A stretch of 7,363 nt of DNA from a virus (taxonomy: Duplodnaviria; Heunggongvirae; Uroviricota; Caudoviricetes): positions 1 through 7,363 of IMG/VR virus record IMGVR_UViG_2529292836_000012; one strand, 5' to 3'. A model generated the notes under the pieces. It saw only the letters and a list, made by a program, of their open reading frames with translations, was not told where the DNA came from and made no database searches. The translations under genes and the position numbers were made by a program. Of this stretch, positions 3,393 to 3,785 are shown one piece after another; the stretch's first letter is position 1, and every line of letters starts with the position of its first letter.

Positions 3393-3785
3393 TTACTCAC
3401 GAATCAGGCGAGCACTCTTACTATTCATTTCAATACGCGAATACTGCGGTTTACCATCAATGATGTCTGTCATTACGAACACCTCACCCGGCTGCAGTTC
3501 AACTGCACCTTCCGGTAATTTCATACCGGCAAATACCGGACAACCCGGATGACGATCATCTTCTGTTGCTTCCAGCATTGACTCACCAAACCACTCCGTC
3601 GTGGCGCGACCATCAGCTGCTTTGTAGTGGATCAAGTACTGGTTTTCGCCATCCGCATACTGCGCGCGGGCTTTAACCTCACCCCATTCATCACTGATAC
3701 GCATCTCCACCAGTTGAGACAACTCAAACTTAAACGGAGCAGCATCAGCACCAATTACAATCGGTTTGTTTTCTGTTTTTTCCAT
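3393..3785 (-). CDS. hypothetical acidic protein (130 aa), function unknown; candidate moron between lysis cassette and cos
   Basis: ORF with AGGAGA 6 nt upstream of the ATG at 3785-3783 (the second of two adjacent ATGs). The product is acidic (about 24 D/E against 15 K/R) with no TMD or signal peptide. It is flanked by non-coding DNA on both sides and by the hairpin at its 3' end. No family was recognised. Confidence 0.6.
   Translation of the reverse strand: MEKTENKPIVIGADAAPFKFELSQLVEMRISDEWGEVKARAQYADGENQYLIHYKAADGRATTEWFGESMLEATEDDRHPGCPVFAGMKLPEGAVELQPGEVFVMTDIIDGKPQYSRIEMNSKSARLIRE

Follow-up and report, generated by a model that had tools for sequence, protein, structure and literature searches.

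HspQ of Escherichia coli acts on the protease Lon and, when it accumulates, on ClpS; similarly, PDIP38 docks on the zinc-binding domain of CLPX, and ClpF works with ClpS1 (PMC6719616, PMC7647994, PMC8835725). Phages also intervene in Lon-dependent proteolysis: T4 PinA antagonizes Lon, possibly at the region to which HspQ binds (PMC8835725), and Dap1 and Dap2 of phage PaoP5 protect an HNH packaging endonuclease from Lon (PMC13083879). Our literature searches on protein L33 of the Stx2e phage phiP27 and on YccV in prophages found no description of phage YccV-like proteins. Here, we analyzed a stretch of tailed-phage DNA of 7,363 nucleotides (nt) (IMG/VR record IMGVR_UViG_2529292836_000012, positions 1 to 7,363; hereafter, the window) and, in it, the minus-strand open reading frame (ORF) at 3393-3785, which encodes an acidic protein of 130 amino acids (aa) related to phiP27 L33. 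We found that this ORF is a genuine accessory gene of a large phage protein family and that the predicted fold and the profile of its core resemble HspQ. Interpreting this PHROG 1935 protein as a minimal phage variant of the HspQ/YccV structural lineage that has no degron appears to be new and is based on profile alignments and a structural model.

The gene was already known as a hypothetical one. The RefSeq coordinates of WP_000415817.1 (hypothetical protein) coincide exactly with the ORF, and the closest named relative is phiP27 L33, with 98.9% identity over aa 1 to 95. The protein matches the functionally unannotated families PHROG 1935 (E = 2.5e-69; aa 1 to 115 against positions 1 to 116 of the 116-position profile) and, with its core, PHROG 8618 (E = 5.6e-25). 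Thus, the statement in the initial annotation that the product matches no family does not hold. An exhaustive hidden Markov model search of 1.84 billion cluster representatives recovered 1,061 clusters (50% identity) at E ≤ 1e-3, most of them stand-alone proteins of 58 to 90 aa. Among homologs with 70-95% protein identity, dN/dS was 0.05-0.3 in the core, and the C-terminal 35 residues gave somewhat higher values. Because of these low values and of the many clusters that match the family profile, we consider the ORF a real gene under purifying selection. Annotated domains are of little help: scans of the protein against Pfam, NCBIfam, and PADLOC gave zero matches, a Pfam scan of 77 family members (E ≤ 1) gave only noise, and none of the 855 relatives from a word-indexed profile search has a Pfam domain over this region. 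Searches of PDB sequences by phmmer and hmmsearch yielded sub-threshold noise (BH3703, E = 0.74) or nothing, and a fold search of the viral database BFVD returned only unnamed small barrels. The gene and its parts are as follows.

3393..3785, minus strand: coding sequence of the acidic 130-aa protein WP_000415817.1 (phiP27 L33 family, PHROG 1935)
3792..3796, minus strand: Shine-Dalgarno sequence AGGAG, as read from the sequence, spaced 6 nt from the ATG at 3785 and 3 nt from that at 3788
3561..3737, minus strand: conserved core domain, aa 17 to 75, a predicted five-stranded SH3/Tudor-type barrel, HspQ/YccV-like
3501..3560, minus strand: linker, aa 76 to 95, with the motif DDRHPGCP, which aligns with DEHPEQP of HspQ; ends in LPEGAV
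3396..3500, minus strand: optional β-rich C-terminal extension, aa 96 to 130, PHROG 8025-like, with lower model confidence and looser selection

The ribosome-binding site claimed in the initial annotation is thus present. An alternative ATG at 3788, 3 nt upstream, would give a product of 131 aa, while the longer version in the ORF list, a 147-aa product starting at 3836, was rejected because this start is without a Shine-Dalgarno sequence and the family alignments begin at MEK. The annotation of the product as acidic and soluble was confirmed by a computed net charge of −9.3 at pH 7, a pI of 4.75, and a grand average of hydropathy of −0.53; the protein has no signal peptide, lipobox, transmembrane segment, or hydrophobic N terminus. 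We regard the product as a soluble, acidic, cytoplasmic protein that is non-structural, dispensable, and accessory in nature.

Within the core, 13 residues are near-invariant (F18, L22, V26, S31, E33, G35, R40, Y50, Y54, D58, G59, W65, and E68), and the family alignment follows the pattern FKFxLxQxV..S.E.G.V..RAxY...NxYxIxY.AADGRA...WF.ES.L. Stand-alone members end right after the barrel, some family proteins contain tandem double cores, and the C-terminal extension is present in the 130-aa form and is missing from phiP27 L33 and most family members; LPEGAV marks the point at which the ~98-aa and the 130-aa forms diverge. Among the fusion partners of longer members, only tail-fiber-assembly N-domains and one Lcl_C domain have an informative Pfam or PHROG annotation. 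ORFs in which a tail-fiber-assembly N-domain is in frame with a full L33-like sequence occur at L004:3695-4408 (Yersinia phage vB_YpM_44) and in P0078, P0052, and P0144; these may be real fusions or annotation artifacts caused by GTG starts, as P0028 begins with MKREGPEQ at the same point.

In an AlphaFold2 model based on a 77-sequence alignment, the protein is all-β, with pLDDT values of ~90-95 for the five-stranded core and lower confidence for the C-terminal part. The top Foldseek match in the PDB is HspQ (5ycq; E = 3.9e-3, TM score of 0.71 normalized to the target), ~25 times better than the next match; the other listed structural neighbors are SH3, Tudor, and KOW domains. Two structural methods rank HspQ first, the SH3-like barrel can be superimposed on that of HspQ, and, with the profile comparison, three independent lines point to HspQ/YccV. 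At the profile level, hhalign against an HspQ family alignment gave a probability of 57% with a shallow HspQ profile. With a family profile of 239 sequences, the probability was 81% (score of 35.0 over 70 columns), again with the shallow HspQ profile and without another SH3-like family as a control, while 200 column-shuffled HspQ alignments gave a mean score of 10.8 and a maximum of 21.3; with the reversed alignment, the score was 10.8. The L33 and HspQ profiles align in register over the whole barrel, and the conserved positions KF..Q.V, G.V, Y, E..L, and HP..P are common to both families.

Several caveats apply to the question of homology. PF08755, the Pfam family of HspQ, was matched neither by the target protein (E ≤ 0.1) nor by the 77 family members (E ≤ 1); the HspQ profile is shallow, and an attempt to widen it from solved structures yielded only HspQ itself; the SH3 fold is common; and column shuffling is a lenient control. 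Balancing these points against the alignment and the model, we regard it as probable that the L33 family is homologous to the YccV-like domain. Like the target protein, the E. coli heat-shock protein HspQ/YccV is small, single-domain, cytoplasmic, and strongly acidic. By contrast, the L33 family lacks the ~15-residue insertion between β2 and β3 of HspQ, the site at which PDIP38 has a large insertion (PMC7647994), as well as the C-terminal tail, where HspQ has its Lon degron and K96 acetylation switch (PMC11882793, PMC6719616); the alignment to HspQ ends at HP..P, and the β-rich extension of the 130-aa form is unrelated to HspQ. L33-like genes are encoded by phages and prophages, while a tblastn search of 50,697 phage records did not find canonical HspQ. 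We also noticed that the 130-aa form ends in ...SARLIRE (3396-3413), with the variants ...RLIPA and ...CLVRK, and that HspQ ends in ...APRLRN, within the reported Lon-degron tail; this short likeness could be a coincidence.

HspQ/YccV was originally described as a hemimethylated-DNA binder, a name that survives in source annotations, raising the idea that the L33-like protein acts on DNA, perhaps in connection with the N6/N4 DNA methyltransferase encoded ~2 kb upstream. A DNA methylase is encoded in the same late region in phiP27 as it is here and lies 2-4 kb downstream in several divergent loci; however, the protein is strongly acidic throughout (the core has a net charge of −5.9), as is common in the L33 family (93% net negative, median pI of 4.8), the methylase association is missing in the P2-like, Edwardsiella, Enterobacter, and Sodalis contexts described below, and the recent HspQ literature favors protease regulation. 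We therefore consider a DNA-directed role very unlikely. The fold check proposed in the initial annotation for a DNA-mimic or anti-restriction fold returned a β-barrel instead. DNA-mimic anti-restriction proteins, for example Ocr and ArdA, are helical or elongated, and none of them is among the listed fold-search matches. A role as a DNA-mimic anti-restriction protein is unsupported given the all-β SH3-type model and a net charge of −9 over 130 aa.

Because YccV-like domains repeatedly dock on AAA+ proteolytic machines and phages are known to disarm Lon, we suggest as the best supported, though still tentative, explanation that the protein mimics HspQ: expressed late, it would bind to a host AAA+ protease or adaptor and modulate it. 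According to this model, the gene would be transcribed in a late operon in the order lysis cassette, target gene, cos, terminase genes, and its conserved core would be a minimal YccV/HspQ-type SH3 barrel that acts by stoichiometric protein binding. A non-degradable, HspQ-like decoy could then dock on the host protease or adaptor, with the Lon N-domain, ClpS, or ClpX-type sites as the predicted targets, and docking would alter the set of proteins degraded in late infection, for instance by sparing packaging enzymes. Late expression, the identity of the partner, and what follows from docking are our inferences. A bolder version of this idea is that L33-like proteins form a large, unrecognized family of virus-encoded HspQ mimics, i.e., degron-less YccV barrels that serve as late decoys or inhibitors of Lon (or of ClpS/ClpX adaptor sites) and shield HNH and terminase proteins from a host proteolytic defense; we consider this version speculative and rather unlikely. 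If it were true, a host regulator fold would have been hijacked as a counter-defense across >1,000 sequence clusters of proteobacterial phages.

The distribution of the gene shows that its slot is variable, as a synteny comparison suggested in the initial annotation might reveal. The target gene was matched in 261 of 5,426 complete E. coli genomes, and its full-length 130-aa form was present in 62. In phages cdtI and phi458, the same slot contains an unrelated KilA-N-like fragment, and phiSTEC1575-Stx2k is without the gene. In a survey of 80 IMG/VR loci of close relatives, the small lipoprotein of the lysis module was found ahead of the gene in nearly all loci for which upstream sequence exists, while at least four packaging modules were present downstream, i.e., a DUF1441 small terminase gene (terS), a Stx2k-type terS with a gpA gene, an HNH gene with an HK97-type terminase, and a ParB-like module. 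Downstream homology to the window breaks at ~3500 within the ORF in 40 loci, giving the ~98-aa form; at ~3350, just past a hairpin that follows the gene, in 3 loci; and at 2960-3010, at cosN, in 28 loci. This clustering of breakpoints means that the 130-aa gene, the hairpin, and the 396 bp of cos-proximal DNA travel together as a right-end module, that cos itself is a mosaic junction, and that the two forms of the ORF arose by recombination within it, after codon 95.

As in the E. coli genomes, the L33-like gene of other enterobacterial lineages invariably shares the orientation of the late genes. It is located after the spanin genes and before terS and the large terminase gene (terL) in Edwardsiella, Enterobacter, Sodalis, and Salmonella. 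The P2-like prophages have it between terS (gpM) and gpL, where in two cases it overlaps the terS stop codon by 11-23 nt, while in Burkholderia it is found beside a ParE/helix-turn-helix pair, an HNH gene, and terS. The repeated occurrence next to terS, HNH, and terL in five or more types of packaging modules could mean that the protein is a packaging or head-assembly accessory that binds the small terminase, HNH protein, terminase, or procapsid, for example by Dap1-like shielding of HNH or by chaperoning terminase assembly, and the overlap with the 3' end of terS in P2-like prophages suggests translational coupling. However, the gene is not present in close relatives with the same terminases (cdtI, phi458, and Tritos-type phages), and the E. 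coli gene stays with the lysis module while the packaging types downstream are swapped. P2 itself is not known to have an L33-like gene, which also argues against a dedicated packaging function. Moreover, in a divergent branch, for which we surveyed 80 further loci, packaging genes are located just downstream in only about one-quarter (in two of these, HNH at +40 and +125 nt), and most loci are without a nearby packaging gene, with methylases, integrases, and replication genes as neighbors instead. We consider a packaging function unlikely. A bulk Pfam scan of 132 downstream neighbors in the divergent loci identified no dominant family, and our search for a conserved partner gene identified only a downstream protein of 212-216 aa that is common to just three lambdoid loci and has no Pfam match. 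Because the contexts are mixed, we conclude that the core domain is a portable accessory module rather than a fixed part of one machine.

The same data bear on the possibility that the small, acidic barrel binds another target, such as a defense sensor or effector, and contributes to anti-defense or host takeover without involving proteases. In a Sodalis prophage, the L33-like gene begins 15 nt after a gene for an Acb2/Tad1-hairpin protein (63 bits; cutoff, 27), which is why we regard such a role as plausible; the slot is variable and the gene sporadic, divergent members are found among small early genes in Bcep176 and a Bordetella phage, and the protein is of a small, acidic type that is widespread in phages. 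Just upstream of the Acb2/Tad1 gene, the Sodalis loci (L109:3672-4249 and L110:1672-2249) contain an invasin-like Big_1 gene, a moron, and the whole arrangement looks like a small cargo or anti-defense islet between the lysis and terminase genes. On the other hand, this is a single example of an anti-defense neighbor; the target protein matched no PADLOC model, in a library that holds defense rather than anti-defense proteins, and no anti-defense Pfam family; and the specific resemblance to HspQ would be left unexplained. We therefore view anti-defense without proteases as less likely than not, though nearly as likely as the decoy model. The target protein itself, which has no Pfam match, does not match the Acb2/Tad1 sponge family (PF24729); only the neighboring Sodalis gene does. 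Of the accessory functions suggested in the initial annotation, an anti-defense or host-takeover role thus remains plausible, while lysogenic conversion is disfavored by the lack of an export signal and of a detectable promoter, as detailed below.

The window is a segment of an E. coli lambdoid prophage that is 100% identical to NZ_CP115984.1 (strain NCCP 13717), and several genomes of enterotoxigenic E. coli (ETEC) carry near-identical copies. All genes in the window are on the minus strand. In the direction of transcription, a gene for a 77-aa winged helix-turn-helix-like protein is followed by the N6/N4 DNA methylase gene (5919-6968), three tRNA genes (5620-5869), two holin genes, an M15 endolysin gene (4390-4773), small membrane protein/lipoprotein ORFs at 4144-4317 and 3960-4142, and the target ORF; beyond a gene-free interval of ~580 bp follow the genes for a DUF1441-type small terminase (2273-2812) and a gpA-type large terminase (216-2264). 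The features that flank the target gene are as follows.

3960..4142, minus strand: upstream neighbor, gene for a small lysis-module lipoprotein with the lipobox LVGC
3349..3389, minus strand: stable hairpin with a 17-bp stem, directly after the stop codon
2997..3348, minus strand: noncoding right-end DNA from the hairpin to cosN, which accompanies the 130-aa gene in relatives; homology stops at cos
2985..2996, minus strand: predicted 12-nt cohesive end of cosN, GGGCGGGAGCGT (lambda: GGGCGGCGACCT)

The prediction of the cohesive end is well supported by sequence comparison. Read from 2996, the minus strand is GGGCGGGAGCGTCGCGG, and the equivalent sequence in lambda is GGGCGGCGACCTCGCGG; furthermore, two GenBank records have one of their ends exactly at window position 2996/2997, phage Tritos its start and phage cdtI its end. 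With the end placed there, the stop codon of the target gene lies 396 bp from the predicted end, and no other credible gene is present in this interval, in agreement with the initial description of a lone gene ~400 bp from cos. A 61-aa minus-strand ORF at 3048-3233 was rejected as a second gene, because it shares only ~57% protein identity with Orf24 of phi458 at ~86-88% DNA identity over the matched region, a divergence that is non-coding-like; this sequence is probably conserved cos-proximal DNA (a cosQ-like region) without a gene. The noncoding DNA also contains an exact 14-nt direct repeat, CCGGTTTTTTATTT, at 3198-3211 and 3332-3345, 134 bp apart, and one copy directly follows the hairpin when the coding strand is read. 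The hairpin itself is as stable as initially described: its 76-nt segment has a predicted folding energy of −28.9 kcal/mol (z = −4.55), and none of 200 shuffled sequences was equally stable. Because it is followed by an A-run and not by a U-run, it does not qualify as a canonical intrinsic terminator and may rather function as a stabilizer of the mRNA 3' end or as a pause element.

A search of the coding strand between 2700 and 4500 revealed no sigma-70-like promoter. Together with the placement of the gene and its co-orientation with late genes, this suggests that it is transcribed by read-through of the late operon rather than as a moron expressed in the lysogen; based on lambdoid biology and the missing promoter, the gene is probably expressed late, by Q-dependent read-through, as the last right-arm gene of the late operon. 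The initial annotation had likened the slot to that of bor in lambda, and the gene could in principle be a bor-type moron for lysogenic conversion, expressed from the prophage, or a superinfection-exclusion factor. Indeed, bor-type morons occupy the same interval between Rz and cos, after the lysis genes, and this interval is likewise a slot for variable cargo. However, Bor is a lipoprotein that is expressed in the lysogen from its own promoter, while the target protein is predicted to be a soluble, all-β protein without an export signal, and its gene has no detectable promoter. The analogy is therefore weak and such a function highly improbable. Likewise, the argument that the right end is injected first has no bearing on a gene without its own promoter.

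Several additional features of the prophage deserve mention. Canonical Rz/Rz1 genes are not present after the M15 endolysin gene (3960-4317). Instead, an ORF of 37-57 aa with a C-terminal hydrophobic segment is followed by one for a lipoprotein of 51-60 aa (LVGC, with two C-terminal Cys residues); both belong to PHROGs of unknown function and may be the counterparts of spanins. The lipoprotein ORF contains, at 4068-4093, a terminator-like hairpin with a T-run. The tRNAs are Arg-UCU, Arg-UCG, and a CAU tRNA (Met according to ARAGORN, Ile according to PGAP). The layout of methylase, tRNA, and holin genes (5620-6968) is the same as in phiP27, in which stx2e is located between the tRNA and holin genes; the prophage is an stx-less relative of phiP27 with an empty toxin slot. 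At the other end, the window starts inside an IS66-family insertion sequence (ISCro1 tnpA; 1-215), which interrupts the gpA-type large terminase gene at its 3' end, and in the source genome, a fragment encoding the 27 C-terminal aa of the large terminase lies beyond the element. Because terL is split, this prophage copy is probably packaging-defective, and the "virion genome" of the initial annotation therefore applies to intact relatives.

If the resemblance to HspQ reflects function, the YccV/HspQ family would gain its first viral branch in the L33-like proteins, temperate phages would have a simple, testable route to retuning Lon/Clp proteolysis late in infection, and a large PHROG of unknown function that is present in Stx-type, ETEC, and P2-like prophages would receive a candidate role. 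Otherwise, the ORF would still be a genuine, mobile right-end accessory gene that encodes neither a lysogenic-conversion lipoprotein nor a DNA mimic.

Among the phage proteins known to counteract Lon, Dap2 of PaoP5 is, like the target protein, small (100 aa) and acidic (net charge of −10). The two proteins have no sequence relationship; homology to Dap1/Dap2 was rejected based on hhalign probabilities of 0.1-0.9% for Dap2 (PaoP5_004) and its neighbors. Their genes also differ in context, as the lytic phage PaoP5 encodes Dap2 in its leftmost gene block, which is transcribed divergently, while the target gene probably belongs to the late operon of a temperate phage. The closest described system remains L33 of phiP27, which has the same position, between the lysis cassette and the packaging module. 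While phiP27 L33 and most family members end at ~aa 98 or earlier, the target protein continues into its 35-aa C-terminal extension; and while phiP27 L33 precedes an HNH/HK97-type module, the target gene precedes a lambda-type cos and a gpA terminase.
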